Assembly: GCF_036507355.1 (NCBI RefSeq)
Contig: NZ_AP027877.1
DNA: 64,000 bases
Reading direction: 5' to 3' (one strand)
DNA from: Escherichia coli
GTDB lineage: Bacteria > Pseudomonadota > Gammaproteobacteria > Enterobacterales > Enterobacteriaceae
This document shows positions 6,410-53,132 of this stretch, piece after piece. Both the position numbers and the translations under genes were made by a program. Below the pieces are notes generated by a model that did no database searches, had not been told where the DNA came from, and saw only the letters and a program-made list of their open reading frames with translations. How positions within the stretch are numbered: position 1 is the first letter of the stretch; each line of letters begins with the position of its first letter.

Positions 6410-7528
6410 ATGCATAACCAGGCTCCAATTCAACGTAGAAAATCAACACGTATTTACGTTGGGAATGTGCCGATTGGCGATGGTGCTCCCATCGCCGTAC
6501 AGTCCATGACCAATACGCGTACGACAGATGTCGAAGCAACGGTCAATCAAATCAAGGCGCTGGAACGCGTTGGCGCTGATATCGTCCGTGTCTCCGTACC
6601 GACGATGGACGCGGCAGAAGCGTTCAAACTCATCAAACAGCAGGTTAACGTGCCGCTGGTGGCTGACATCCACTTCGACTATCGCATTGCGCTGAAAGTA
6701 GCGGAATACGGCGTCGATTGTCTGCGTATTAACCCTGGCAATATCGGTAATGAAGAGCGTATTCGCATGGTGGTTGACTGTGCGCGCGATAAAAACATTC
6801 CGATCCGTATTGGCGTTAACGCCGGATCGCTGGAAAAAGATCTGCAAGAAAAGTATGGCGAACCGACGCCGCAGGCGTTGCTGGAATCCGCCATGCGCCA
6901 TGTTGATCATCTCGATCGCCTGAACTTCGATCAGTTCAAAGTCAGCGTGAAAGCGTCTGACGTCTTCCTCGCTGTTGAGTCTTATCGTTTGCTGGCAAAA
7001 CAAATCGATCAGCCGTTGCATCTGGGGATCACCGAAGCCGGTGGTGCGCGCAGCGGGGCAGTAAAATCCGCCATTGGTTTAGGTCTGCTGCTGTCTGAAG
7101 GCATCGGCGACACGCTGCGCGTATCACTGGCGGCCGATCCGGTCGAAGAGATCAAAGTCGGTTTCGATATTTTGAAATCGCTTCGTATCCGTTCGCGAGG
7201 TATCAACTTCATCGCCTGTCCGACCTGTTCGCGTCAGGAGTTTGATGTTATCGGTACGGTTAACGCGCTGGAGCAACGCCTGGAAGATATCATCACTCCG
7301 ATGGACGTTTCGATTATCGGCTGCGTGGTGAATGGCCCAGGTGAGGCGCTGGTTTCTACACTCGGCGTCACCGGCGGCAACAAGAAAAGCGGCCTCTATG
7401 AAGATGGCGTGCGCAAAGACCGTCTGGACAACAACGATATGATCGACCAGCTGGAAGCACGCATTCGTGCGAAAGCCAGTCAGCTGGACGAAGCGCGTCG
7501 AATTGACGTTCAGCAGGTCGAAAAATAA
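6410..7528 (+). CDS. ispG: 4-hydroxy-3-methylbut-2-enyl diphosphate synthase
   Basis: 372 aa; conserved GcpE sequence incl. Cys cluster CPTCSR...GCVVNGPGE. Confidence 0.95.
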
Positions 7529-7529
7529 T

Positions 7530-7620
7530 AACGTGATGGGAAGCGCCTCGCTTCCCGTGTATGATTGAACCCGCATAGCTCCCGAAACATTGAGGGAAGC
7601 GTTGAGGGTTCATTTTTATA
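7530..7620 (+). ncRNA. sroE: candidate 3'UTR-derived small RNA in ispG-hisS spacer (SroE-like)
   Basis: Two hairpins (GGGAAGCG-CCT-CGCTTCCC; GAACCC...GGGTTC + ATTTTTAT) directly after ispG stop; location matches what I recall for SroE; not verified. Confidence 0.45.
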
Positions 7621-23484: not shown

Positions 23485-23988
23485 TTATTGATAGTGTTTT
23501 ATGTTCAGATAATGCCCGATGACTTTGTCATGCAGCTCCACCGATTTTGAGAACGACAGCGACTTCCGTCCCAGCCGTGCCAGGTGCTGCCTCAGATTCA
23601 GGTTATGCCGCTCAATTCGCTGCGTATATCGCTTGCTGATTACGTGCAGCTTTCCCTTCAGGCGGGATTCATACAGCGGCCAGCCATCCGTCATCCATAT
23701 CACCACGTCAAAGGGTGACAGCAGGCTCATAAGACGCCCCAGCGTCGCCATCGTGCGTTCACCGAATACGTGCGCAACAACCGTCTTCCGGAGCCTGTCA
23801 TACGCGTAAAACAGCCAGCGCTGGCGCGATTTAGCCCCGACATAGCCCCACTGTTCGTCCATTTCCGCGCAGACGATGACGTCACTGCCCGGCTGTATGC
23901 GCGAGGTTACCGACTGCGGCCTGAGTTTTTTAAGTGACGTAAAATCGTGTTGAGGCCAACGCCCATAATGCGGGCTGTTGCCCGGCAT
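23485..23988 (-). CDS. insB: IS1 InsB (transposase C-terminal part; fused to InsA by -1 frameshift)
   Basis: 167 aa, [16 protein letters not shown]...; overlaps insA around the A6C slippery site. Confidence 0.9.
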
Positions 23989-24182
23989 CCAACGCCATTC
24001 ATGGCCATATCAATGATTTTCTGGTGCGTACCGGGTTGAGAAGCGGTGTAAGTGAACTGCAGTTGCCATGTTTTACGGCAGTGAGAGCAGAGATAGCGCT
24101 GATGTCCGGCGGTGCTTTTGCCGTTACGCACCACCCCGTCAGTAGCTGAACAGGAGGGACAGCTGATAGAAACAGAAGCCAC
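23907..24182 (-). CDS. insA: IS1 InsA (transposition repressor / transposase N-terminal part)
   Basis: 91 aa, [40 protein letters not shown]... Confidence 0.9.
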
Positions 24183-39214: not shown

Positions 39215-39218
39215 TCTT

Positions 39219-39253
39219 CAGCCCGACGAACTGTTTCGCCGGGCTGATTTTTC
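39219..39253. terminator. terminator shared by convergent perM and focB
   Basis: CAGCCCGACGAA-CTGT-TTCGCCGGGCTG (12-bp stem, 1 mismatch) followed by ATTTTTC; focB stop lies within the T-run. Confidence 0.7.
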
Positions 39254-40100
39254 AGAGTTCCTGACGTAAATAAATAGCCCGATAACACATACTCACCAGC
39301 ACTGCACCGCCGATAATATTACCCAGCATCACCGGGAGCAGATTGGCGGTAATAAAATGGCTGACCGTCAGTGCAGGAAAATTGTCTGCGCTACTGTGCG
39401 CCAGTTGCCAGAAGGGGGTTGGGGCAAAATGGCGAATGGCAATGGCGAACGGAATCACAAACAAATTGGCGATACAGTGCTCAAAGCCACTGGCGACAAA
39501 CAGGGTGATGGGCAAAATCATGGCGACGATTTTGTCGCATAATGAGCGCCCGCAATAACTCATCCACAGCGCCAGGCAAACCATCAGATTGCACATAATG
39601 CCGAGGCTGACAGATTCAGTAAATGTATGATGCATTTTGCCCTCGGCGCAGTGTAAAACCGCGACTCCCCACATCGCGTTTTCACTCATCACCAGCCCGG
39701 AAAACCAGATTAACAAACTGAAACAGGCAATACCTGCCAGATTACCGCAGGCCACCAGAAGTGCGTTAATCAGCCAAGTTCGCCAACTAATAACGCCCCG
39801 ACTTTTTGCCATCACCGTCATTACCGACGAGGTGAACAGGCTGGTGCCGCAAACCGCCAGCAAAATAAAGCCAAGTGTAAAGCAAAGGCCGCCCACCAGA
39901 TGGGTTAATGCCTGTGAAGACGGGGCATCGGCGATAACGGAAAGGTAAAAAGTAAATCCGATCGCCATAAACACGCCAGCGGACATCGCCATTAAAAAGA
40001 CCGACACTTTACTGCGGGCAATTTTATGGGCAGCAATCCGTTCAGCGATTGCCGCTTTTCTGGCGCTCAACTGCAAGTCGAAAGAGAGTTTGTTTCTCAT
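39252..40100 (-). CDS. focB: formate channel FocB
   Basis: 282 aa FNT-family membrane protein located after hyfR. Confidence 0.9.
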   Translation of the reverse strand: MRNKLSFDLQLSARKAAIAERIAAHKIARSKVSVFLMAMSAGVFMAIGFTFYLSVIADAPSSQALTHLVGGLCFTLGFILLAVCGTSLFTSSVMTVMAKSRGVISWRTWLINALLVACGNLAGIACFSLLIWFSGLVMSENAMWGVAVLHCAEGKMHHTFTESVSLGIMCNLMVCLALWMSYCGRSLCDKIVAMILPITLFVASGFEHCIANLFVIPFAIAIRHFAPTPFWQLAHSSADNFPALTVSHFITANLLPVMLGNIIGGAVLVSMCYRAIYLRQEL

Positions 40101-40121
40101 GCATACTCCTGCAAAAGCAGA

Positions 40122-42134
40122 TTACAACACCTCGCGAACCGAGATCCCCAGACGCTGCATTCGTGACAGCAGCGTGGTGCGCTTCATCCCTAATCGTGTC
40201 GCCGCGCCACGGGGCCCGGCAACAATGCCATTGGTTTCTCGCAATACCTGAACAATGCGCTGACGTTCTTCTTCGTCATTCTCTGGCGTCGTCGGGTGCA
40301 GCAACTGCGCCATTGAACTGCGAAGCGCTGAATCTTCATTTAGCGTCGGCAGTAAACGGCTTTGTCGGACATTTAGATGTAAATTCAGACTGTTACCACG
40401 AGTCAACAGTACCGCCCGCTCAATCACGTTTTCCAGCTCGCGCACGTTGCCCGGCCAATCCCACGACATCAACTGGCGTAGTGCCTCGGTCGGGATGGCG
40501 TCAATTGCGCGATTCATATGGCGCGCCATTTTTTGCGTGAAATGTTTTGCTAAAAGAGGGATATCTTCCGGACGGTCGCGTAGCGGCGGCAATTCCAGTG
40601 GGAAGACATTCAGGCGATAAAAGAGATCGCTGCGAAACTGGCGATCTTCAACCATTTGCCACAAATCACGGTTGGTGGCGGCAATGACTCTGACATTCAC
40701 CGGGATCGTTCTACTCCCGCCGAGACGCTCAATCTCCCGCTCCTGCAATACGCGCAGCAGTTTAGGCTGAAGTTCTAACGGCAGATCGCCAATTTCATCG
40801 AGAAACAACGTGCCGCCATCGGCAATTTCAAAACGACCACGATGGGTATTAATCGCACCAGTAAACGCCCCTTTGTCATGACCGAATAACTCACTTTCCA
40901 GAAGACTGGCGGGGATGGCAGCGCAGTTGATTTTGACCAGCGGCTTGTCGCGTCGCGGGCTAAGTTGATGGATCGCTCTGGCGATCACCTCTTTGCCAGT
41001 TCCGGTTTCACCGCAAATCAACACCGTACTGTCGCTCTTCGCCACAATATCTACCTGCTGGAGCAGGTCTTCCATTGCCTGGCTTTGATAGATAATGTCA
41101 CCGACGCCCAGATTCGAAAGGAGCTGCTCGCTAAGCTGGTGGTTTTCTTGCTGCAAACTTTCCTGCAAATCGGTCATGCTACGCCAGGCATCGGCATTGC
41201 CAACGGCAATAGCGATGCGATCGGCTATGTGTTGTAGTAGCTGGCAGTTTTCCTCACTAAAGAGAGTGGAAGAGGTATGCGCCAGCAACAATGCACCCGG
41301 TGTATGGTTGCCAAAGGTAAGCGGTATAAGGAGCGCAGATTCGCAGCCGTTAGATGCAAGTAAGAGTAATAACGGGTCGCGTTGCCAGAGAAATAGATCA
41401 TCTGCACGGTGTGTCAAGGTCGGTTGTCGGGTTTGTAGCGTTTGTGTCAGCAATACACTGTCGCCAGGCATATTGCGTGGCAGACACGCACAATGTGAGG
41501 CAGAAAGATCGCTGCACCACAGGCTGAACTTCTCGTTCTTTCGATGATCGCCCAGTACCATACTGACTGAAGCCAGACCGAAAAAATGATGGATCTCACG
41601 AGCGACGTCAGCGATCAGATCGTCGAGATCAAGATGTGACAGCACTGCATTAGTGATATCCACCAGTACCCGATGATGATCGCGATCTTTCTCCAGCAAA
41701 CGCAGCGCCACCTGTTGTTCTTCATCATTGAGCCATGATTGCAGAACCGGGGTGATAATGCGTGCCAGCCAGTTAAACAGTGTGCAATCCTGGGGAGTAA
41801 AACGGCTGCCGTGGGTACGAATAAAGCGTAGCTCCGCCATTCCACTACTGCCGAGAAGGACGGCGTGACGCGAATAATCGACCATCTCGCCCTGATACTC
41901 TACTGTTGCCGTCACATCGCTGCCATCATCATGGTAGCGGTAATAGAAGTTGCTTTTGAGAACATGCAGTTCAATAAGTTGTACCGGGCTGAACGGCGGC
42001 GGCAGCGGGATGAAGGCGCGTAATAAAGACGCCTTGCCGTGTTTCTGTGCTAACCGCTCCGCGAGCATTCCGTTTACCGCTTCAATTGTTATTCCTTGTG
42101 GCGGGGCAAACATCGCCTCGTCTGACATAGCCAT
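40122..42134 (-). CDS. hyfR: sigma54-dependent transcriptional activator HyfR (GAF, AAA+, HTH)
   Basis: about 670 aa; Walker [15 protein letters not shown] sigma54-interaction motif, C-terminal HTH. Confidence 0.9.
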
Positions 42135-42163
42135 CAACAGTCCTTATTAATGAGAAATCCTTC

Positions 42164-42577
42164 TCACGCAATTTTTCTGGCCATCAGATAGATGGCCGGT
42201 TCCTGCACAATTTCATCCAACAGATGAATGAATTGAATGCTACGCGCCTGCCACACAGACGTCACGTCATCTGCCAGTGGCGCGAATGCCCGGGTCAACA
42301 GGGCGGTGTGGCTGGCGTCAATAACAATCTCACCAAAAGTCATCACCCCCAGCATCTTACGTCGGGCTTGCTCCTCTTCGACCAGTGCAAGCCAATCTTC
42401 GTATTCCGTCAGTGGGCAGCGGAAGGCGACATTCAGACAATCAATCACGCCAACGTGATGACCGATAGCCAGCGAGTAATACATTACCTGGGAGCAGTGT
42501 TCCGGCATCTCGTCGCTACTGGCGACAAACTTTTTTCGCAGCGTCCAGAAAACAATTTCCCCGCACTCCTCAGCCAT
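42164..42577 (-). CDS. hyfJ: hydrogenase-4 component J (HycH-like maturation factor)
   Basis: 137 aa from [17 protein letters not shown]; ORF-track start 42679 overlaps hyfI and is probably spurious. Confidence 0.8.
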
Positions 42578-43328
42578 GTAACCCCCGGAGAACGCGAAAG
42601 AGTTGCTGAACGATACTATTGAGACGCGGATCGTCGGCTTCGCGCAACCAGGTGTTAACCCGATTTCCTGTAGGATCATCGCTTAAATGGCGCAGGAGCC
42701 GATCGCAAATTTCTCGCCCCTGACGATAGCCCGCCAGCCGCCGCGCTTCTCGCTCAACGGCGATACGCTGTGATGGCGGGATCTGCGGCCACAGCGGTTG
42801 CATGGTCACTCCGGTGGGATCGCGAAAATCCACCGCGTGAATCTTCTGTTGCAGCAAACCGAGCGCCACGGCGAAACCGTGAATGGTGGCAGCCGGTGTT
42901 GGCGGGCAGCCGGGGATCCAAACATCAATGGGGACAATGGTGTCGCTGCCGCCCCAGACGCTGTAGAGATCGTGGAAAATACCGCCGCCGACACCGCACG
43001 CGCCGTAGGAAACACAGATTTTATGATCGGGGGCAGACTCATACGCCCGAAGTGCAGGCATACGCATCGCCCGGGTGACTGCGCCAGTAAATAACAAAAT
43101 ATCGGCGTGACGCGGTGATGAAACAACCTTAATGCCAAAACGTTCTGCGTCGAATACTGGTGTGATGGCGGCAAAAATTTCGATTTCACAGGCGTTGCAG
43201 CCGCCGCAATCGACGCGATAAACGTAGGCTGAGCGACGGATATTCTGTAGCAAATGCCGCTTCATCTTTTGCGTTTGCTCGTCCAGCGTGATGGGCTGGC
43301 TGACATGTTGTGTAAGCACTGGACTCAT
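42570..43328 (-). CDS. hyfI: hydrogenase-4 small subunit (NuoB-like)
   Basis: 252 aa; NuoB-type Fe-S Cys motifs (GCCPG...CGAC...GCPP). Confidence 0.9.
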
Positions 43329-43870
43329 AGCTGCTCCTTAGCCACCAGCGGTACATCTGTATCGTCGTTGATCAGCGTCGCGCGTTGTTTGCACTCCGGG
43401 CAGACGCTCGCTTGCGCCCGCAACATTTCGCGGTTTTGTGGCGCATTTTGTTGCTGTGCCAACAATTCAGCAGCCAGTGCGACGGTTTTTTGCGGGGCAA
43501 ACGGGCGTTCGCAACGGCTGCAACGTTGTAGATGGAACGTCGCGCGGGTATAGAGATCGGCTTTATTGGTGACGGTCAGTTCAAAGTTATTGGTAAGCTG
43601 GATGGCTCTGGTCGGGCACACTTCTTCACAACGTCCGCAGTAAATACAACGCCCCAGATAGAGCTGCCAGGTGCGCGAATTTTGCTGGTCGTCGGTCTGG
43701 ATAGTCAGCGCATTTGCCGGACAAGCACAGGCGCAGGCACCGCAGGCAATACATTGGCTGGGCATCAGGTCCGGTTTCCCGCGAAAGCCTGGGCTGACCT
43801 CCAGTGGCGCGAAGGGATATTTCACCGTCGCGGTTCCGGCGCGCATAATAGTTTTCAGTAACTTCAGCAT
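43325..43870 (-). CDS. hyfH: hydrogenase-4 component H (2x[4Fe-4S] ferredoxin, NuoI-like)
   Basis: 181 aa; two CxxCxxCxxxCP motifs. Confidence 0.9.
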
Positions 43871-43879
43871 CTTCTGTCC

Positions 43880-45595
43880 TTACTTCAGCGGCGAACGGTT
43901 ACGATCAATGCCGTAGCGTTCGATCTCTTTATACGGCACGGTTTTTGACTGGCGCTTGCGCACATCAACCAGCGTCACACGGTCGGTACAGGAGTAGCAG
44001 GGATCAAGGCTACCGATAATCAGCGGTGCGTCAGAAACGGTATTGCCGCGTAGCATGTAACGCAGCACCGGCCAGTTGGCGTAGGTGGCGGCACGACAGC
44101 GCCAGCGGAACAATTTTTGGTTATCACCGAGCATGCTCCAGTGCACGTCTTCACCGCGTGGCGCTTCAACAAAGCCGAGCGCGAATGCGTGAGGTTTATA
44201 GCTAAAGCCTTCGGTCAGCAGTGGGGTGTCCGGCATGTTGTCGAGGGCAAATTCCAGCATTGCCAGCGAATCAAACGTCTCTTTGACACGGACCATCACG
44301 CGGGAGAAGACATCGCCGCCGGTAAAGGTAAACAGTGTTTTGGGAATATTGCCGTAGTCGGCGTAGGGGTGATCAAAGCGCAAATCACGGGCAAAACCAC
44401 TGCCGCGGATCAGCGGCCCTACAGGGCTATATTCACGGGCGATTTGTCGGTCGAGAATGCCAATGCCCTGAGTGCGTTGTTCCATATTCGGCGTAGCAAG
44501 CAGCATCTCTACCAGCTCCGACACGTCGGCGCGCATCTCGCGCACCAGTTTCAGCGTTTGCAGACGTTGCTCTTTGAGAATATCGCGGCGAACACCACCA
44601 ATCAGATTCAGACCGTAGGTTTTACGCGACCCGGTCAGCAATTCCGCCATCGTCATCGACTTTTCCCGCACGCGGAAAAATTGCATAAAGCCGGTATCAA
44701 AACCAACAAAATGGCAGGAGAGGCCAAGGTTGAGCAAATGACTGTGTAGCCGTTCGACTTCCAGCAGAATCGAGCGAATGGTATGCGCTCGTTGCGGCAC
44801 CTCAATCCCCAGTGCATTTTCAACCGAGTTGGTATAGGCCACACTGTGGGCAAAACCGCAAATCCCACACACGCGGTCCGATAAGAAGGTCACTTCGTTG
44901 TAGCCCATCCGCGTTTCTGCCAGTTTCTCCATGCCGCGATGGACATAAAACAGGCGGTAATCAGCATCGACAATTTGCTCGCCATCCACAAACAAGCGGA
45001 AGTGACCCGGTTCATCGGAGGTGATATGCAGCGGGCCGACAGGGATCACCTGCGCATCGCTGTTGCCCTCATTGATAAACGGATACGTTTCGGAATCAGT
45101 CGTCGGTTCAGGGCGCAGTCGATAATCCATCGCGTCTTTGCGCAGCGGATGCATATCTTCCGGCCAGTCATCGGGCAACACCAGGCGACGCTGATCCGGC
45201 AGGCCAACCGGAATCAGCCCGTACATATCGCGAATTTCTCGCTCGCCCCAGACCGCGGCAGGGACGCGCGGTGTGACTGACGGAAACTCCCGACTGTCGG
45301 CATCGACCAGTGTCTTCACCACGATCCAGCATTTTTCGGCCCCTTCCATAGAAAGGGCATAATAAACGGCGTAATGACCGTTAAGTGTCCGCTCGTCGTT
45401 GCCAAACAGGACCGGAAGCCAGCCATCATGTTGATAATAAAGATAATGTACAACGTCAGGCAGCAGATTGATTTTCACCGTAATGGTGACCTGTTCAGGC
45501 GTTTGTCGCTCTTCATCCAGCACCGCGCCGGGGAACTGCGTTTTCAGGGCGGCGAGAATCGCTTCGCCACGATTTGACGATGAATTAACGTTCAC
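43880..45595 (-). CDS. hyfG: hydrogenase-4 large subunit ([NiFe] catalytic, NuoC/NuoD-like fusion)
   Basis: Ni-binding [10 protein letters not shown] and C-terminal DPCYSCTDR motifs; start uncertain (GTG 45595 with GGAG RBS, or other in-frame starts up to 45640). Confidence 0.85.
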
Positions 45596-47165
45596 TGTGT
45601 TTCTCCGAAACAGATGCGGTGCCTGAAGGCAAAAAATCATGCCAGGTGCTACGTTGTGCAGGCAGGTCGTGCGTCCCTGAGAGGACTATAGTGGAAGCGC
45701 CCGCCAGGATCCTGATGACAGGTTGTGGAATATGCGTTCCCATCGCCAGCATCATGACCAGCAGAATCACCATTGGCGATGTGGTCAACCAGCCGAGATC
45801 ACCCCGGTTAACGGCCTGCGGCGGTTTCGCCATTAACACCCGCGCAGCCATCCGTACCAGGCCCGCCAGCACCAGCGTTAACAGCAATAACAGCAGGACG
45901 ATAATCAGCAGGTGATTACGTGCCAGTCCGGCGGTAACGGTCATAAATTCGCTAAGAAAAATGTTGAAGGGCGGCATCCCTGCCAGCGCCAGCGCACCGC
46001 CGCCAAACAGCACGGCGGTAAATGGCATGATTTTGAGCATCCCACAGACGACGTTGAGATCGCGCGTGCCGTACTTGAGCAGTACATTGCCGGAACCGCA
46101 GAACAGCAGCGTTTTTGCCAGACTGTGGTTTAAGGTGTGCAGCAGCGCGGCAAAAATTCCCAGCGGCCCGCCAATGCCTAGCGCCACCGCGACCAGTCCC
46201 ATGTTCTCCACGCTGGAGTACGCCAGCAGACGCTTAATGTCCCGCTGTACCAGAATGAAAAATGCCGCCACGGCAATCGACAACATGCCGAAGATGAGCA
46301 ACAACCGGTTGGGGAAATCGCTGCCGATGGCCTGGCAAATAATGATGTAATAGCGAATCAGCACCAACAGCGCGCAGTTCAGCAATACGGCGGAGAGTAG
46401 GGCGCTGACCGGACTCGGCGCTTCACTGTGAGCATCCGGCAGCCAGGCGTGCATAGGAAATAGCCCGGTTTTGGTGCCAAAGCCAATTAGCACAAACACA
46501 AAGGCCAACAGCATTAATGTTGGGTCAAGCAAGGACGATTGCTTAAGAACCTCGCTCCAGAATATCGCCATTTCTGCCTGCGGCATAACGCTGGCGGCGT
46601 TGGCGTATACCAGCACGGTACCGAACAGACCAAAAGCGACACCGACAGTACAAATAATGATGTACTTCCATGCAGCTTCCAGCGATGAACGCTGACCGTA
46701 AATGCCTACCAGAAACGCCGAGCTTAAGGTGGTGGCTTCGATCGCCGCCCACATCACAATCAGGTTATTGCTGGTAACAACCAGCAGCATGGTGAACAAA
46801 AACAGATGGAAGAAACCGTAGTAATCGCACAGCGTAACGGGTGAAAGCTCGCCGTGCTCCACTTCATGACGCATGTAGCCAATCGAGTAAACACCGGTAA
46901 GAAAGCCAATCACACCAAGAATGGCGAGGAACAAACCGCCCAGACCATCAATATGAAGCCACAGTCCCGCAGCGAATATTTCTCCCGCATCAGCGGCGGT
47001 TTGGACCACCCAGAGTGCCAGAATCAGCAGTAGTGTGATCCCTAAGCTATGTAATACTGTCACCGCGCGAGTCGCAGAGTGCCCTCGTTTCCGGCAGGCA
47101 AAACAGAGCAGCGAAAAAAGCAGCGGCGTGAGCAGGAGTAAAGCGAACATCACAGAATAACTCAT
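45585..47165 (-). CDS. hyfF: hydrogenase-4 membrane subunit F (NuoL/M/N antiporter-like)
   Basis: 526 aa polytopic membrane protein. Confidence 0.9.
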
Positions 47166-47195
47166 CTCATTATCCCTTCAGCGCGGTCAAGTTGT

Positions 47196-47819
47196 TCACG
47201 TCCAGCTGCCGTGGGTACGCCATATTTTTCTTGCCAGTAACACCATCACAATGACGGCGAAGATGGCGTCGGTAGCGATACCAATTTCCACCAGTTCCGG
47301 TGCACGCCAGGCTAGAAGCGCCAGCACCAGATGGGAGCCGTTTTCCATCAGGCAGTAACCAAAAATTTGCCGCAGGATATTGCGCTGGCTAACAATGCAC
47401 AGCAGGCCAAGCAGAAAATGACCTAACGCCACCGCCAGCGCTGGTTTCAGCCCGGTAGCCATCGGTAGCTTCACGGGCTGAACGACAAATGCGCAAAGCA
47501 GGACAATTAACGCCGCGAGCAGTGCCATCATTGCCGGACCGAATAACGCTTTTTCCGGGATGTTCTGGGGAATATTTCGTGCAGCGTAAGTCATGATTAA
47601 CGGTACCAGCAGCACTTTGGTGATAAAGGCGCTGGCGGACCAGATCAGCAGTTGCTCTGCGGCGAACAGGCACGAGAGGGTGGCGAAAATAGACACCAGC
47701 ACCAGTGACTGGCAGGCGTAAAATCCGCATGACAGGCGATAGCTTTTGACGCTAATCACAAACAGCGATGTCAGCATCATCAGTCCCGCCAGATTATTTA
47801 CGATCATAGAACCGGTCAT
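47196..47819 (-). CDS. hyfE: hydrogenase-4 membrane subunit E
   Basis: 207 aa hydrophobic protein; RBS GGAG before ATG. Confidence 0.85.
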   Translation of the reverse strand: MTGSMIVNNLAGLMMLTSLFVISVKSYRLSCGFYACQSLVLVSIFATLSCLFAAEQLLIWSASAFITKVLLVPLIMTYAARNIPQNIPEKALFGPAMMALLAALIVLLCAFVVQPVKLPMATGLKPALAVALGHFLLGLLCIVSQRNILRQIFGYCLMENGSHLVLALLAWRAPELVEIGIATDAIFAVIVMVLLARKIWRTHGSWT

Positions 47820-47830
47820 TCATCATCTCC

Positions 47831-49270
47831 TTACTGCAACCAGGTCGCGGCGATTACGCTGGAAATCAGCGACATCACAATCAGTACAATCAGCACCAGG
47901 CGCATTGACCCTGGCAGCGGTGCGGCATCGGCGACGGCCTCGCTCGGTTTGCCAGGCACGACGCGACCAAACCAGCGAATAAACCAGGCGAAACTGGCGA
48001 CCGATTCAATCATCAGCAGAATCATGGCGGGCAGCAGGATCCAGTACTCCACTGACAACGCAAAACCGGCAGCAAACAGCGGGAATTTACTGAAGAAGCC
48101 GTTGAACGGCGGCACACCGGTAATCGCCAGCGCTGCCACGCAGAAACCCACGCCTGGCAACGGCAGGGTGTGCAATACGCCACGCAGACGCGGCAACAAG
48201 CGCGTGCCGCAGCTGTAACTTAGCGCACCTGCTACAAGGAAAAACAGGCTTTTAGCGAACGCGTGGTTGACGATGTAGGCGATGCTACCCTCCAGCGCCA
48301 GCCGCGAGCCGAAGATGGAGAGCGACAAGCCGAAGAACATCCAGCCAAGTTGAGTGATGGTCGACCAGGCCAGCAACCGCTTCATATCCTGCTGTGGCAA
48401 ATACATCAGAAATCCATAAAGAATGGTGACCAGGGCCATGACCATGCCAACGCCGCCAATCACATGCGGGATATTGCCGCCGTCGATAATGGCGCGGGCA
48501 AAAATGTAAACGCCCACTTTCACCATCGATGCGGCGTGGAGATAGGCGCTGATCGGTGTTGGCGCTTCCATTGCGTCCGGTAGCCACGCTTGCATCGGTA
48601 GCTGGGCCGATTTCCCCCACGCAGCAAACAGGATGCCGCCATAAACCAGATAACGTGCGTCGCCGTGTAACTCGCTCATTGCGCTAAGCGCAAACGTTCC
48701 GGTCTGCAAAAACAGCGTGGCGGCGGCAAGATACAATCCCAGCGAACCGATATGAGTGATAAGCAACGCTTTTAGTGCTGAACGCTGCGCTTTATCGCTC
48801 TGATAATAACTGATCAACGCCCAGGAGCAGCCGCCCGTAATTTCAAAAAACAACAACTGACCGAGCAGCGTCGAGGAGAGTACCAGTCCCGCCATCGCGC
48901 CGATAAACACCAGCAAAAATGCGTAATAACGATTCGTGCCGTTATGCGGGTGTTCGCGATTTTTATCCGTCAGATAACCCGTGGAGTAGATCGTGACCAG
49001 CAAACCGAGAAACACCACCACAAACAGAATCAGCGTACTCACGCGATCAATGACCAGGCCAAACAATGCCACATCCCCCACGTTGACCAACGTCAACGTG
49101 ACGGCAACTTTATCGGCCTGATAAAACGCGGAGATCAGTGACAACATGCACAGCGTGGTCAGCGCGGCGAACAAAACCCCCCATTCGGCGGCCCGACGTT
49201 GTGGCGAAAACGAAACGACCAGTGCGCCGATAAAAGGCAGCATTAACGTCGTCAGAGCAAGATTTTCCAT
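47831..49270 (-). CDS. hyfD: hydrogenase-4 membrane subunit D (antiporter-like)
   Basis: 479 aa polytopic membrane protein. Confidence 0.9.
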   Translation of the reverse strand: MENLALTTLMLPFIGALVVSFSPQRRAAEWGVLFAALTTLCMLSLISAFYQADKVAVTLTLVNVGDVALFGLVIDRVSTLILFVVVFLGLLVTIYSTGYLTDKNREHPHNGTNRYYAFLLVFIGAMAGLVLSSTLLGQLLFFEITGGCSWALISYYQSDKAQRSALKALLITHIGSLGLYLAAATLFLQTGTFALSAMSELHGDARYLVYGGILFAAWGKSAQLPMQAWLPDAMEAPTPISAYLHAASMVKVGVYIFARAIIDGGNIPHVIGGVGMVMALVTILYGFLMYLPQQDMKRLLAWSTITQLGWMFFGLSLSIFGSRLALEGSIAYIVNHAFAKSLFFLVAGALSYSCGTRLLPRLRGVLHTLPLPGVGFCVAALAITGVPPFNGFFSKFPLFAAGFALSVEYWILLPAMILLMIESVASFAWFIRWFGRVVPGKPSEAVADAAPLPGSMRLVLIVLIVMSLISSVIAATWLQ

Positions 49271-49286
49271 ATTCCGTCAGTGCTCC

Positions 49287-50234
49287 TTACAGACCGGTTA
49301 ACCAGAAGACCCATGCAAGCGCAGCAAGGCTGAAGCCAAGCCAGGTCACATGGTGAATGAGTAAAAAACGCCCGCGTGCCAGCGTGTTTTCTGCGATAGA
49401 GGCCAGAACAAAAATCAGCAAAACCTTGAGCAGCGTAACGACAAGTGAAGTCAGCAGGCAGGCGAGAGAAAGCTCTTGCGCGCGCCCAAAGGGCAGAAAC
49501 AGGGCCACAAACAGTGCTGCCATCACGACCTGTTTCAGCCCCAGCCCCCATTTCGCCAGCGCCAGCCCGGCACCGGAATATTCGGTCAGCGGGCCTTCCT
49601 GTAATTCCTGTTCTGCTTCAGCAACATCAAAGGGAATTTTTCCCATCTCTATGAAGCAGGCAAAACCACAGGCCAGTAACGCCAGTACGGTGGTTAGCGG
49701 CGAGTTCCAGCCCATCGCCAGCGTATTGCTGATCATCTCGATATGCGTGGAATCCGCTATCAGCGCCAATACCAGCAGTGAGAGAATGAGCATGGGTTCG
49801 ACCAGAATGCCGAGCGTCAACTCGCGACTGGCACCGACTCCCGCAAACGGACTTCCGGTATCCAGCCCGGAAAGAGCAAAGAAAAAACGAAACAGGGCAA
49901 GAAGATAGATAAGGGTGATCAGATCGCCGCCGCCCGCAAAAGGGGAAACGGTAATAAATAGTGGTAGGGCCATCGCCAGCACCAGCATGCTGCTGATTAA
50001 TACCCACGGCATCAGGCGGAACATCAGACCTGAAGATGTCGGCGCAACTTCCTGGCGTTTAAACAGTTTGTGGATATCGCGATAATCCTGCCAGATCCCC
50101 GGTCCGCGGCGGGAGTGCATACGCGCGCGTATCTGCCGGGAAATACCCGTAAAAAGTGGGGTTAGCATCAGCAGAATCACGGCCTGTGCTAACGCAAAAA
50201 TGACCAGATATCCGTCGCAAAGAGTTTGTCTCAT
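49287..50234 (-). CDS. hyfC: hydrogenase-4 membrane subunit C (NuoH-like)
   Basis: 315 aa from MRQTLCDGYLVIF; ORF-track start 7 codons upstream also possible. Confidence 0.85.
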   Translation of the reverse strand: MRQTLCDGYLVIFALAQAVILLMLTPLFTGISRQIRARMHSRRGPGIWQDYRDIHKLFKRQEVAPTSSGLMFRLMPWVLISSMLVLAMALPLFITVSPFAGGGDLITLIYLLALFRFFFALSGLDTGSPFAGVGASRELTLGILVEPMLILSLLVLALIADSTHIEMISNTLAMGWNSPLTTVLALLACGFACFIEMGKIPFDVAEAEQELQEGPLTEYSGAGLALAKWGLGLKQVVMAALFVALFLPFGRAQELSLACLLTSLVVTLLKVLLIFVLASIAENTLARGRFLLIHHVTWLGFSLAALAWVFWLTGL

Positions 50235-50244
50235 GGTGATTTCC

Positions 50245-52263
50245 TTAGACGGCAATAGCGATTAGCAGCACAACCAGTGCGGCGACCACATACAGGCAAT
50301 AGAGACGAAAGTCGCCGCTTTGCAGATGCTGTATTTCTTTGGCCAGCCGTTGGGTGGCGCTCACGATGGGGCGGATCACCCGCTCATCCCAGAAGGGTTC
50401 TGTGCTCTGAGCCCTGGCGGTGACGTGCGCAAGACCTTTATTTAGCCTCAGCGTAGGGTCGAGCTGTTGTCGTAGACGAAATAGCGCAGAGAAGACCACA
50501 CGCAGCGGCTGCATCACGCCATTGCCTGACGGGGCCATCGCATTTTCCCAGCCGTAGCCGCATGCCCAGGCATCTCCTGTGCGACGAAACGCTGCGCGGC
50601 GCGAACGACACCACAGCCAGTAAAGGCCAGGCAGCAAAGGCATCGCCAGTAGTAACAGCAACAGTAATGAGGGGGTGACCTGTGTATGAAACGTGCCGGG
50701 TACAAGTGCTATTCCGCTGGCGACAGTGACGGGAGGGGTATTGGTAAACGCATGGGCAATATGCATTATCTTCGGTGCCAGCCAACTGGCACTAAGCGCA
50801 ATTAATACGCAGAGTGCCGCGAGCAGTAGCATGGCGACGATCATCGTATTTGGCACTTCCTGTGCCTCTTCAGCGTGTGTACTGCGCGGCGCACCACAGA
50901 AAGTAATACCGTACATTTTTACGAAGCACATTACTGCCAGCCCACCAGTGACTGCCAGCATTACCATAGCAATAGGACCCGCAAGTTGTAGCGCTACGGC
51001 TTCCACACGACTTAGTGAGAACAGCGACTGCCAGGTGTACCATTCGCTGATAAAACCATTCAGCGGAGGAATGGCTGATATCGCGAGGCAACCAATCAGG
51101 CATGCTGCGGCTGTCCACGGCATCCGTTTCGCCAGTGCCCCCATTTTTTCCATGTCGTGGGTATGCAAACGCGAAATAATCGCGCCCGCGCCGAGAAATA
51201 GCAGCCCTTTGAACAGCGCATGGTTGAGCAGATGAAACAGTGCGCCGAGCAGTCCAACCACGGTGAGCAGCGGGTCGTGCAGTGACAGACCGACCATCGC
51301 CACACCGACTGCCAGCAAAATAATGCCGACGTTTTCGACGGTACTCCAGGCCAGCAGCCGTTTGATATCCTGTTCCGCCAGCGCATATAGCACGCCCAGG
51401 AGCGCGGAGATTGCGCCGATCGCCATCACCAGAATGCCCCACCACAGAGGCAAACCCGTTTGCGCCAGCAGATCCATCGCTACTTTCAGGATGCCGAAAA
51501 TACCGATTTTGACCATTACGCCAGACATCAACGCCGAAGCGTGCGATGGTGCGGCAGGGTGAGCGCGCGGCAACCAGCTGTGCAACGGCATCATCCCGGC
51601 TTTCGCGCCAAAACCGAAAAAGGCCAGCAGGAACACCGCCGACGCCAGCCCCGGAGAAAGTGAAAGCGTGCGGAAACTGGCAAAATCGAGGCTGCCGCTT
51701 TCGCGCCTCATCAGCAAGAAGGCGATCATAATCAGCACCGATCCGGCGTGGGCGATAAAAAAGTAGAGCATGCCAGCGTTGATCGACGTTTTATCCTGCC
51801 TGGCAATGACCAGAAACCAGGAAGACAGTGACATCATTTCAAACAGCACGATGAACCAAAAAGTGTTGTCCATCACCAGCAGGGCAACCATCGATGCGAT
51901 GAAAAGATTCATAAAGAAGCCCATCGCCGCCGCGCCTTTGCCCTCGTATTCGCGCATATAAGTCAATGAATAGAGCGAACAAACTACCACTAGCAAGGAG
52001 ATAACCAGCACCATAAATGCCGAGAGGCTATCCATTCGCAGGGTTAAATCGGCAAAGTCAAAAGGGGTGGCAAAACGGGCGACTAAAGTTACGCCTCCAT
52101 GTAATTGCGTAATTCCGCTGATAATGCCAATCACGCCGCCCACCAGCGATGTGATGCCGGAAAGCTTAATAGCCAGTCTGTCCAGACCGAGTAAAAACAG
52201 CGAAGCCAGACTGGCAAACAGATAGAGGATCAGCGACCAGGTTAATAATTGCAGGGCATCCAT
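50245..52263 (-). CDS. hyfB: hydrogenase-4 membrane subunit B (NuoL-like)
   Basis: 672 aa polytopic membrane protein; start overlaps hyfA stop (TAATG). Confidence 0.9.
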   Translation of the reverse strand: MDALQLLTWSLILYLFASLASLFLLGLDRLAIKLSGITSLVGGVIGIISGITQLHGGVTLVARFATPFDFADLTLRMDSLSAFMVLVISLLVVVCSLYSLTYMREYEGKGAAAMGFFMNLFIASMVALLVMDNTFWFIVLFEMMSLSSWFLVIARQDKTSINAGMLYFFIAHAGSVLIMIAFLLMRRESGSLDFASFRTLSLSPGLASAVFLLAFFGFGAKAGMMPLHSWLPRAHPAAPSHASALMSGVMVKIGIFGILKVAMDLLAQTGLPLWWGILVMAIGAISALLGVLYALAEQDIKRLLAWSTVENVGIILLAVGVAMVGLSLHDPLLTVVGLLGALFHLLNHALFKGLLFLGAGAIISRLHTHDMEKMGALAKRMPWTAAACLIGCLAISAIPPLNGFISEWYTWQSLFSLSRVEAVALQLAGPIAMVMLAVTGGLAVMCFVKMYGITFCGAPRSTHAEEAQEVPNTMIVAMLLLAALCVLIALSASWLAPKIMHIAHAFTNTPPVTVASGIALVPGTFHTQVTPSLLLLLLLAMPLLPGLYWLWCRSRRAAFRRTGDAWACGYGWENAMAPSGNGVMQPLRVVFSALFRLRQQLDPTLRLNKGLAHVTARAQSTEPFWDERVIRPIVSATQRLAKEIQHLQSGDFRLYCLYVVAALVVLLIAIAV

Positions 52264-52880
52264 TAGCGTTGCTCCTGAGTGAGGGAAAGGGGATCCTCCC
52301 CGCCATTGGCAAACCAGCTTGCGGCAAGGCGCTGTTTTTCTTTCATCTGACGTTGCAGGCTATCGTCGGTGATCAGCCGTAACGCCTGATTCGGGCAAGC
52401 GCGAACGCAGGCCGGACCTTCTGGCAAGAAATCACACAGGTCGCATTTCACCGCGACGGTCTGGACACCTGGTTCCCAGCGCAGCAAAGCATGTTGTGTT
52501 GGCGCGTTTTCTTCGCCGTCTTTGAGTGAGCCTTCAGCCTGAAAAACATATTGCGCAGGGGCATTCACCGGACGGCTTCCTGAAGCGCTGATTGCGCCAA
52601 ATGGGCAGACCACGGCGCAAAGCTTGCAGCCAATACAGAGGCTTTCGTTGAGTTGGATCGCATCATCCCTCTGGGAGATGGCATTGACCGGGCAGACCTG
52701 CAGGCAAGGGGCTTCCTCACAGTGATGACACACGACAGGGGCAGTGAGTGTTGACGTCTTCGCCAGGGCCAGGCGCGGGTGTTGCTGTAAACCTTGCGTT
52801 TTATGCACGTCCGAACAGGCAGCGAGACAGGTATTACATCCTGTACACCACAGTGGTTCGGCCACCACAAAGCGGTTCAT
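52263..52880 (-). CDS. hyfA: hydrogenase-4 component A (4x[4Fe-4S] ferredoxin)
   Basis: 205 aa from MNRFVVAEPLWCTGCNTCLAAC; AGGAG RBS 6 nt upstream; multiple CxxCxxCxxxCP clusters. Confidence 0.9.
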   Translation of the reverse strand: MNRFVVAEPLWCTGCNTCLAACSDVHKTQGLQQHPRLALAKTSTLTAPVVCHHCEEAPCLQVCPVNAISQRDDAIQLNESLCIGCKLCAVVCPFGAISASGSRPVNAPAQYVFQAEGSLKDGEENAPTQHALLRWEPGVQTVAVKCDLCDFLPEGPACVRACPNQALRLITDDSLQRQMKEKQRLAASWFANGGEDPLSLTQEQR

Positions 52881-52920
52881 GTCGGCTCCTTGAAAATGAT
52901 ATGAAACATTGCATTTCATA

Positions 52921-52938
52921 TTGCATAAAGGATGCCAG
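52921..52938 (-). promoter_or_regulatory. sigma54 (-24/-12) promoter of the hyf operon
   Basis: Minus strand reads CTGGCATCCTTTATGCAA: TGGCAT-N6-TGCA with GG and GC spaced as in the TGGCAC-N5-TTGCA consensus, about 45 bp upstream of hyfA start; fits HyfR being a sigma54 activator. Confidence 0.7.
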
Positions 52939-53132
52939 TCTGATTAATTTAATATATTCAATAAGTTATGAATTAACTGGATTCTGAACGGTACAAAAAT
53001 GATGGTCATTAACGTTCAGCAAAAAATGGATTCGACACCCGTGTCGCAGGGGAACGCGAGAATGTGATCTTGATCACGAGAAGTGAGGTGTGCTGACCAC
53101 AAGCGCAGCCAGCACGGAATGGAGCAAAGTAA

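Follow-up and report, generated by a model that had tools for sequence, protein, structure and literature searches.

[quoted passage not shown]

Introduction

The hyfABCDEFGHIJR-focB operon of Escherichia coli encodes hydrogenase-4 (Hyd-4), the enzyme of formate hydrogenlyase-2 (FHL-2). Hyd-4 belongs to the group-4a [NiFe] hydrogenases, relatives of complex I, and has a soluble catalytic arm made up of HyfA, HyfG, HyfH and HyfI and a membrane arm made up of HyfB, HyfC, HyfD, HyfE and HyfF; the same operon also supplies the chaperone HyfJ, the sigma-54 activator HyfR and the formate channel FocB. Hyd-4 activity in any E. coli is disputed (PMC7654741; PMC11841067). Hyd-4 of K-12, a strain that carries a short hyfG allele, made no H2 even when overexpressed (PMC7654741), and loss of hyf has been reported in the F/G/B2 lineage (PMC6896753). 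In Pectobacterium, HyfDEF is dispensable for H2 output (PMC7384014). In ChIP-seq, sigma-54 binds the K-12 hyfA promoter at site OS23, which lies 31 nt from hyfA (PMC4591121), and in gSELEX this promoter is among the strongest RpoN-holoenzyme peaks (PMC8743547).

Here we analyse a hyf locus within a 64-kb stretch of E. coli DNA (the window), comparing it with other E. coli genomes and with described FHL-2, FHL-1 and complex I-related systems. The system is a known one, and the lesion it carries is minor and lineage-specific.

Results

Twelve consecutive minus-strand open reading frames in the window correspond to hyfA-J, hyfR and focB, with full-length matches to all except hyfE. They lie in hyfABCDEFGHIJR-focB order on one strand between bcp and yfgO, as in K-12, and the best match among 5,426 complete E. 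coli genomes covers 100% of the locus at 99.1% identity. The region is thus the canonical E. coli hyf operon, and the operon, its sigma-54 promoter and its HyfR regulator are textbook features of the species that were already known. A preliminary description of this DNA had likewise named a hydrogenase-4 locus of known kind, with which both the identity and the synteny with annotated hyf loci agree; it had, however, placed all twelve genes within 40122-52938, a range that ends at the hyfR stop codon and leaves focB (39252-40100) outside. Protein matches (tblastn) extend over the full length of 11 of the 12 genes, and these eleven have no frameshift, premature stop or internal deletion; hyfE is the exception. 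An Rfam scan gave no match inside the locus. The operon is missing from about 21% of complete E. coli genomes and, because of this absence and its loss in F/G/B2, is dispensable. Indels and substitutions were counted against the reference H1, and K-12 was compared by alignment.

The features of the soluble and membrane subunits are those of an FHL-2 enzyme (all coordinates that follow are on the minus strand). HyfA (52263-52880; 205 aa) is a ferredoxin-type Fe-S subunit with two CxxCxxCxxxC motifs and a full-length tblastn match at 99.5%; a longer alternative ATG at 52919 falls upstream of the predicted transcription start. The start of hyfB (50245-52263; 672 aa, an antiporter-like membrane subunit) overlaps the hyfA stop in the sequence TAATG, as the preliminary description had read it, and its clone-mate protein matches Proton_antipo_M (Pfam). 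HyfC (49287-50234; 315 aa, NuoH-like membrane subunit) matches the reference at 100% identity along all of its 315 aa and begins at the curated ATG, not at a longer TTG at 50255. HyfD (47831-49270; 479 aa) and HyfF (45585-47165; 526 aa) are further antiporter-like membrane subunits; HyfB, HyfD and HyfF are mutually paralogous, all match Proton_antipo_M, and occur together with a HyfE that matches PF00420 in C-terminally truncated form, the combination by which FHL-2 is recognised. Both HyfH (43325-43870; 181 aa, a 2x[4Fe-4S] ferredoxin-like subunit 100% identical to the reference) and HyfI (42570-43328; 252 aa, the NuoB-like small subunit) retain their motifs, HyfI having cysteines at 41, 44, 47, 105, 111 and 141 as expected for the proximal cluster of a small subunit.

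Downstream of these, hyfJ (42164-42577; 137 aa) encodes a HycH-like chaperone. The ATGA overlap described at hyfH/hyfI is present in the sequence; the one described at hyfI/hyfJ is instead an overlap of 8 nt (ATGGCTGA). The curated starts of hyfC, hyfG and hyfJ, earlier marked for checking, all fit. The most divergent gene of the operon is hyfJ, with 7 substitutions relative to H1; one of them, S28C, is absent from L004 (the one clone-mate compared) and makes the exact HyfJ protein of the window unique to a single contig in the collection. We considered whether elevated divergence marks rapid decay of hyfI and hyfJ and found no support for this: a 99.5%-identical allele occurs in another lineage, and the divergence is therefore standing polymorphism. 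HyfR (40122-42134; 670 aa) is a full-length sigma-54 enhancer-binding protein (99.6%) with the AAA+ features of a cognate activator, a Walker A sequence ETGTGKE at 376 and GAFTGA at 422, and its clone-mate protein matches the GAF and Sigma54_activat families of Pfam. The last gene, focB (39252-40100), encodes a 282-aa formate channel and is followed, between the convergent focB and yfgO, by a hairpin with a 13-bp stem (39218-39247) that is likely the operon terminator. Across the hyf operon, about 33 amino-acid changes are found among about 120 coding differences from H1, a pattern that suggests constraint and argues against a general relaxation of selection.

Upstream of hyfA, the -24/-12 element reported in the preliminary description is found as TGGCATCCTTTATGCA at 52937-52922 (minus strand). 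Its GG and GC dinucleotides are 10 nt apart, as in sigma-54 promoters of the TGGCAC-N5-TTGCA type, and it is suitably placed before the first gene: its 3' end lies 41 nt from the hyfA ATG (52880), and transcription is predicted to start near 52911, some 31 nt before hyfA. The frequency of the motif within the window lends it no statistical support, one match to TGGCAYN6TGCW being found in 64 kb where 1.11 are expected by chance; the case for the element rests on its position and on its identity to the experimentally bound K-12 site, with which it shares all 16 nt of the core. The base 5' of the -24 TGG differs, being C in the window and A in K-12. The earlier reading of the element as consistent with a sigma-54 promoter served by HyfR is supported. 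By analogy with K-12, transcription would start from this promoter about 31 nt upstream of hyfA, occupied by sigma-54 holoenzyme, and its activation would require HyfR or FhlA. No HyfR or FhlA operator was identified upstream of hyfA: the FhlA-type operator TGWC-N6-GWCA (PMC7658346) does not occur in 52938-53132 with up to 1 mismatch allowed, and its 88 matches across the window are only slightly above chance (72 ± 8 in shuffles). A palindrome, CGTGATCAAGATCACA (53063-53078, minus strand), located roughly 160 nt before the predicted start, is invariant in the window, K-12 and H1 and is a candidate activator or CRP-type site.

The lesion lies in hyfE (47196-47819), which encodes 207 aa where the reference encodes 216. 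Alignment to the reference places a 1-bp deletion between 47207 and 47206, the sole indel in 14.3 kb. As a result HyfE has SWT in place of its last 12 residues and ends 9 codons early (...RTHG-SWT*), and the 3' remnant of the original frame (47170-47195) is orphaned in an untranslated hyfE-hyfF gap of 30 nt (47166-47195), as compared to 4 nt in the reference. The preliminary description had counted twelve uninterrupted genes and found nothing to indicate decay; the genes are indeed all present as open frames, but that of hyfE has been shortened relative to every reference, and with this deletion the statement on decay fails. It was invisible to that reading because a reference sequence is needed to see it, and at least some annotators list the 207-aa HyfE as a normal protein.

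Single-base indels are the commonest type of assembly error, and the deletion occurs in none of the 4,293 other complete genomes that carry hyfE, as might be expected if the frameshift were a sequencing or assembly error and the true HyfE had 216 aa. We regard such an error as scarcely credible: the same 207-aa HyfE is found on 9 contigs from different sources, and the deletion site (GGCACGCTGG) is not a homopolymer. Moreover, the Logan assembly of SRR17480487 has the deletion and is 100% identical to the window over 6.6 kb, and GCA_016660925.1, which shares the allele, has 5 SNPs relative to the window over 20.6 kb (99.976%) and is therefore another isolate. Because independent assemblies of the clone share it, the error explanation was rejected: the hyfE deletion is real and clone-specific.

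The frameshift removes a C-terminal motif, [ST][LI]D-x3-L-x2-L-[KR]-[GD], whose conservation extends across the NuoK/MrpC/MbhG-like family. In an alignment of 85 HyfE sequences (the E. coli reference and 84 representative diverse homologues), D207 is conserved in 63 of 85, L211 in 75, L214 in 78 and K/R215 in 71, and nearly all of the sequences end at the same position. Only 2 of the 84 homologues have no such tail, and both look like frameshift products. A GTLDxxxLxxLRG ending is also present in Pyrococcus MbhG and in MBS subunit G. The PF00420 match of the full-length protein spans profile positions 2-95 of 95 with 64.4 bits; after truncation it spans 2-84 with 51.2 bits, a cost of 11 profile positions and 13 bits. 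None of the six predicted membrane-spanning stretches is lost from the shortened protein, its NuoK-like domain retains the charged transmembrane residue (LMENGSH), and the loss of 9 residues might be tolerated.

The window carries the long allele of hyfG (43880-45595; 571 aa, GTG start), which encodes the [NiFe] large subunit. As in other group 4 large subunits, both nickel-binding motifs are present (the N-terminal one, of the RxCGxCxxxH type, at 241 and DPCYSCTDR at 531), as is a cleavable C-terminal peptide, here of 32 aa, and the alignment of the protein with HycE of 7z0s runs from one end to the other. It contains a 48-bp segment (44393-44440) that is not in K-12, where an in-frame deletion removes a conserved 16-residue segment of the catalytic subunit (curated length 555 aa). 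A different choice of start codon does not explain 571 as against 555 aa, the curated K-12 start being the same GTG and the indel internal. K-12 has the short form, as do about half of the E. coli that carry hyf (2,113 genomes); hyfG is thus dimorphic in the species, and the laboratory reference strain has the deleted form. We found no mention of this deletion in the literature searched, a scope outside which Andrews 1997 fell. Fully intact versions of the operon exist, for example in NZ_CP083585.

Discussion

These data caution against taking every uninterrupted reading frame for an intact gene: the terminal frameshift of hyfE is hidden inside an open frame. On balance we think it probable that the operon of this clone carries a real lesion by which HyfE function in HyfDEF is weakened or lost, with the H2-forming core unaffected, as an early step of decay. 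The most likely consequence would be a weakened or missing contribution of HyfE to the ion-translocating HyfDEF module; the H2-forming core should be spared, and the lesion may represent a small early decay step in an operon that much of the species can do without.

It is possible, though we lean against it, that the operon is effectively intact, with a short HyfE that functions as the 216-aa form does and a deletion that is a neutral marker of the clone. HyfE is only 9 residues shorter and keeps its six predicted membrane stretches and its conserved charged residue; hyfF has a ribosome-binding site of its own (AAGGGA); the remaining locus is under purifying selection; and since H2 production in Pectobacterium is independent of HyfDEF, a phenotype could be invisible. 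Yet the tail removed belongs to the parts of the family that are best conserved between E. coli and Pyrococcus, almost no natural homologue is without it, the two exceptions among 84 resembling frameshift products, and the change is seen in 0 of 4,293 other E. coli genomes. It seems unlikely, too, that hyf as a whole has become a non-functional relic across E. coli, with the hyfE lesion as one sign of species-wide decay. In K-12, hyf expressed from the hyc or T5 promoter, or with HyfG processing repaired, gave no Hyd-4 H2 (PMC7654741), a protease gene is missing from the E. coli operon itself, about 21% of genomes are missing the operon, and 2,113 genomes carry the in-frame deletion in the catalytic subunit gene hyfG. 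The K-12 experiments, however, used the hyfG-deleted allele and so have little bearing on strains with the long one; in the window, amino-acid changes are few and the hyfE deletion is the single indel of the 14.3 kb, the sigma-54 site is conserved together with the region upstream, and recent physiological work still assigns FHL-2 stationary-phase roles (PMC11841067). A real lesion of HyfE in an operon with a spared core remains our preferred reading.

More tentatively, and with some doubt, we suggest from the alleles compared that the 'cryptic' Hyd-4 of E. coli may be largely a K-12 artefact, that strains with a complete hyfG could form a competent core, and that the operon might be a patchwork of damaged alleles. 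The 48-bp deletion in K-12 hyfG may have been repeat-mediated; strains with complete hyfG, that of the window among them, might then be able to assemble a Hyd-4 core competent for catalysis, and the operon would persist as independently damaged alleles, namely the hyfG deletion, the hyfE frameshift of this clone and whole-operon loss in F/G/B2. If the hyfG deletion inactivates Hyd-4, it would offer a testable explanation for the inactivity of FHL-2 in E. coli, a long-standing mystery of the field, and would identify natural strains in which to examine the proposed energy-conserving role.

How does this locus compare with known systems? In the comparison with E. coli FHL-1 (hyc; 7Z0S/7Z0T), the alignment of HyfG with HycE extends over 565 residues (E = 5e-292), and the two share the [NiFe] cysteine motifs as well as a C-terminal peptide that is cleaved off, whereas the membrane subunits of FHL-1 number only two and include no equivalents of HyfD, HyfE or HyfF. 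The C-terminal half of HyfE matches the NuoK/MrpC/MbhG family (PF00420), to which HyfE adds an N-terminal membrane half; intact HyfE shares the GTLDxxxLxxL[KR]G tail with Pyrococcus MbhG and MBS subunit G, and the window allele has lost it. With hyf of K-12 MG1655 (b2481-b2492), the locus has in common the same twelve genes, order, junctions, position, sigma-54 core and terminator region, and 10 of the 12 genes are equal in length; the window hyfG is 48 bp (16 codons) longer, K-12 having the internal deletion, and the window hyfE is 1 bp shorter (207 versus 216 aa). Finally, the FHL-2 operons of Pectobacterium atrosepticum and Trabulsiella guamensis agree with the locus in their HyfA-J architecture: they have five membrane subunits, among them the FHL-2-specific HyfE, and an activator of the HyfR type. 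These operons encode the protease HyfK, lack focB and are demonstrably active, whereas the E. coli operon has no hyfK and, unlike either, the window encodes a truncated HyfE.

Organization and integrity of the hyf operon

A run of twelve adjacent minus-strand genes in the window (39252–52937) corresponds to hyfA, B, C, D, E, F, G, H, I, J, hyfR and focB of annotated E. coli and keeps the K-12 position, with bcp and gcvR upstream and yfgO and bepA downstream. These gene matches and this synteny confirm the hydrogenase-4 identity proposed in the preliminary description: the operon is a known system, correctly identified. The description had placed all twelve genes within 40122–52938; all twelve are present, but focB (39252–40100) lies outside that range, 40122 being the end of hyfR. 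A hairpin with a 13-bp stem (39218–39247), located where focB and yfgO converge, is the likely terminator. Among 5,426 complete E. coli genomes, the best match to a 13.4-kb query reached 100% coverage and 99.1% identity, and the operon is missing from ~1,130 genomes whose flanks match (~21%), in agreement with the hyf loss reported for the F/G/B2 lineage (PMC6896753).

Curated starts are ATG for every gene except hyfG (GTG), and all 12 genes have a Shine-Dalgarno sequence and no internal stops. The 11 proteins other than HyfE align end to end with their references at 94.9–100% identity; HyfG has both nickel-binding motifs and its 32-residue C-terminal peptide, and the cluster cysteines of HyfI, HyfA and HyfH are retained. 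The hyfA/hyfB (TAATG) and hyfH/hyfI (ATGA) junctions are as first described, while the hyfI/hyfJ overlap, given as ATGA-type, is actually 8 nt (ATGGCTGA); hyfF and hyfG overlap by 11 nt. Amino-acid changes account for ~33 of ~120 coding differences from the reference, which is consistent with purifying selection. Divergence within the operon is greatest in hyfJ and hyfI, and represents polymorphism, since another lineage carries a 99.5%-identical allele. HyfJ also carries S28C (42496, minus strand, codon 28), which is not found in the near-identical isolate GCA_016660925.1, the sole clone-mate compared; the exact HyfJ protein occurs on one contig only in a collection of 15 billion proteins.

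The remainder of the window is ordinary E. coli chromosome (99.0–99.5% identity). An IS1 copy (23485–24182, minus strand; InsA 23907–24182, InsB 23485–23988) is inserted between yfgH and yfgG and explains the many multi-copy and plasmid matches for positions 1–25000. Downstream of sinH/sinI, an adhesin gene (16191–17573, plus strand) encodes 460 aa; its counterpart in E. coli strain ESDR8 encodes 2,139 aa, which leaves the window ~6 kb shorter there. In ESDR8, IS1/IS5 disrupt sinH, which is intact in the window (12818–14998). An Rfam scan matched the sRNAs sroE and ES036/CssrF at 7528–7619 (plus) and 16098–16140 (minus), and returned no RNA family match inside the hyf locus.

A single-base deletion truncates HyfE

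The preliminary description, largely right in other respects, held that nothing in the sequence indicates decay; this fails at hyfE. Whole-locus alignment with the closest annotated genome revealed 124 differences; the sole indel is a C missing from hyfE between 47207 and 47206. The frame shifts at codon 205, HyfE ends ...RTHGSWT* after 207 rather than 216 aa, and the untranslated gap between hyfE and hyfF is 30 nt as compared to 4 nt in the reference. An 80-nt probe spanning the deletion matched 4,293 complete genomes, none above 98.8% identity, and thus all of these have the extra base. A sequencing or assembly error is ruled out, because the identical 207-aa protein was found on nine contigs, including the Logan assembly of SRR17480487 (100% identity to the window over 6.6 kb) and GCA_016660925.1 (5 SNPs in 20.6 kb). 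Shared by near-identical assemblies and missing from 4,293 genomes, the deletion is, by these comparisons, a recent mutation marking one clone.

The Pfam NuoK/ND4L family model (PF00420) aligns with intact HyfE over positions 2–95 of 95 (64.4 bits), and with the window protein over positions 2–84 only (51.2 bits). From a search of 1.84 billion representative proteins, 84 full-length homologues (21–55% identity to the E. coli reference HyfE) were aligned with that reference. The C-terminal stop falls at the same position in nearly all 85 sequences, and the tail residues D207 (63/85), L211 (75/85), L214 (78/85) and K/R215 (71/85) recur; the motif is missing from only two homologues, both of which look like frameshift products. 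Pyrococcus MbhG and MBS subunit G, of solved structure, have the same ending as intact HyfE (...YGTLD/NxxxLRRLRG). As judged by alignment, the tail is a conserved family feature, and its loss therefore probably weakens HyfE. In Mbh and Mrp, homologues of HyfE are located at the ion-binding centre (PMC8679088; PMC7419157), and deletion of hyfDEF in Pectobacterium did not reduce H2 production (PMC7384014); for these reasons the lesion would most likely act on the accessory ion-translocating module rather than on H2 formation.

A predicted sigma-54 promoter shared with K-12

Upstream of hyfA lies the -24/-12 element proposed earlier (TGGCATCCTTTATGCA, 52937–52922, minus strand), with canonical GG-N10-GC spacing. 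The motif alone proves nothing, because TGGCAYN6TGCW occurs once in 64 kb and 1.11 matches are expected from shuffled sequence. Support for the promoter is instead comparative: the 16-nt core and the entire 5' leader are identical in the window and K-12, nearby change being limited to an A to C immediately 5' of TGG in the window, and the K-12 site, 31 nt from hyfA, is sigma-54-bound in ChIP-seq and listed as a confirmed promoter (PMC4591121) and gives one of the strongest RpoN-holoenzyme peaks in genomic SELEX (PMC8743547). The full-length HyfR carries a Walker A motif of the AAA+ type (ETGTGKE) and GAFTGA, the motif that contacts sigma-54. Searching the intergenic region for an activator operator with the published FhlA consensus gave zero matches. 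The bcp-hyfA spacer holds two conserved inverted repeats (53033–53078, minus strand): a CRP-like palindrome at about -160 (CGTGATCAAGATCACA, 53063–53078), which is no more than a candidate upstream site, and CGACACGGGTGTCG with a T-rich run after it, a possible bcp terminator or activator site.

Long and short alleles of hyfG

Checking the hyfG start codon, as the preliminary description had advised, revealed the same GTG in K-12 and the window, yet HyfG is 555 aa in K-12 and 571 aa here. K-12 hyfG has lost 48 bp in frame from its interior, between two direct repeats of 8 bp each (GCCCGTGA), and this deletion, which removes 16 conserved residues, accounts for the difference in length; the segment is present in the window (44393–44440, minus strand), and the junction lies at 11642/11643 of the K-12 hyf locus (L002). 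A probe for the segment matched 2,025 complete genomes, and a probe for the deletion junction matched 2,113, with cattle, dogs, pigs, humans, wastewater and vegetables as sources. A shortened catalytic subunit is thus present in about half of the E. coli that carry hyf, including K-12, the strain used for the 'silent operon' work. The literature searched, a scope outside which Andrews 1997, Skibinski 2002 and Self 2004 fall, makes no mention of the deletion and calls E. coli FHL-2 inactivity unexplained.

Lacking the segment, K-12 HyfG loses 41 bits against Pfam Complex1_49kDa. The deletion may bear on the inactivity of K-12 Hyd-4, and it is conceivable, if rather doubtful, that long-allele strains, including that of the window, encode a competent Hyd-4 core and K-12 does not. 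The 16 residues are present and conserved both in HycE of the solved FHL-1 structure (7Z0S) and in Pyrococcus MbhL, and the window hyfG is evidently the complete, ancestral allele.
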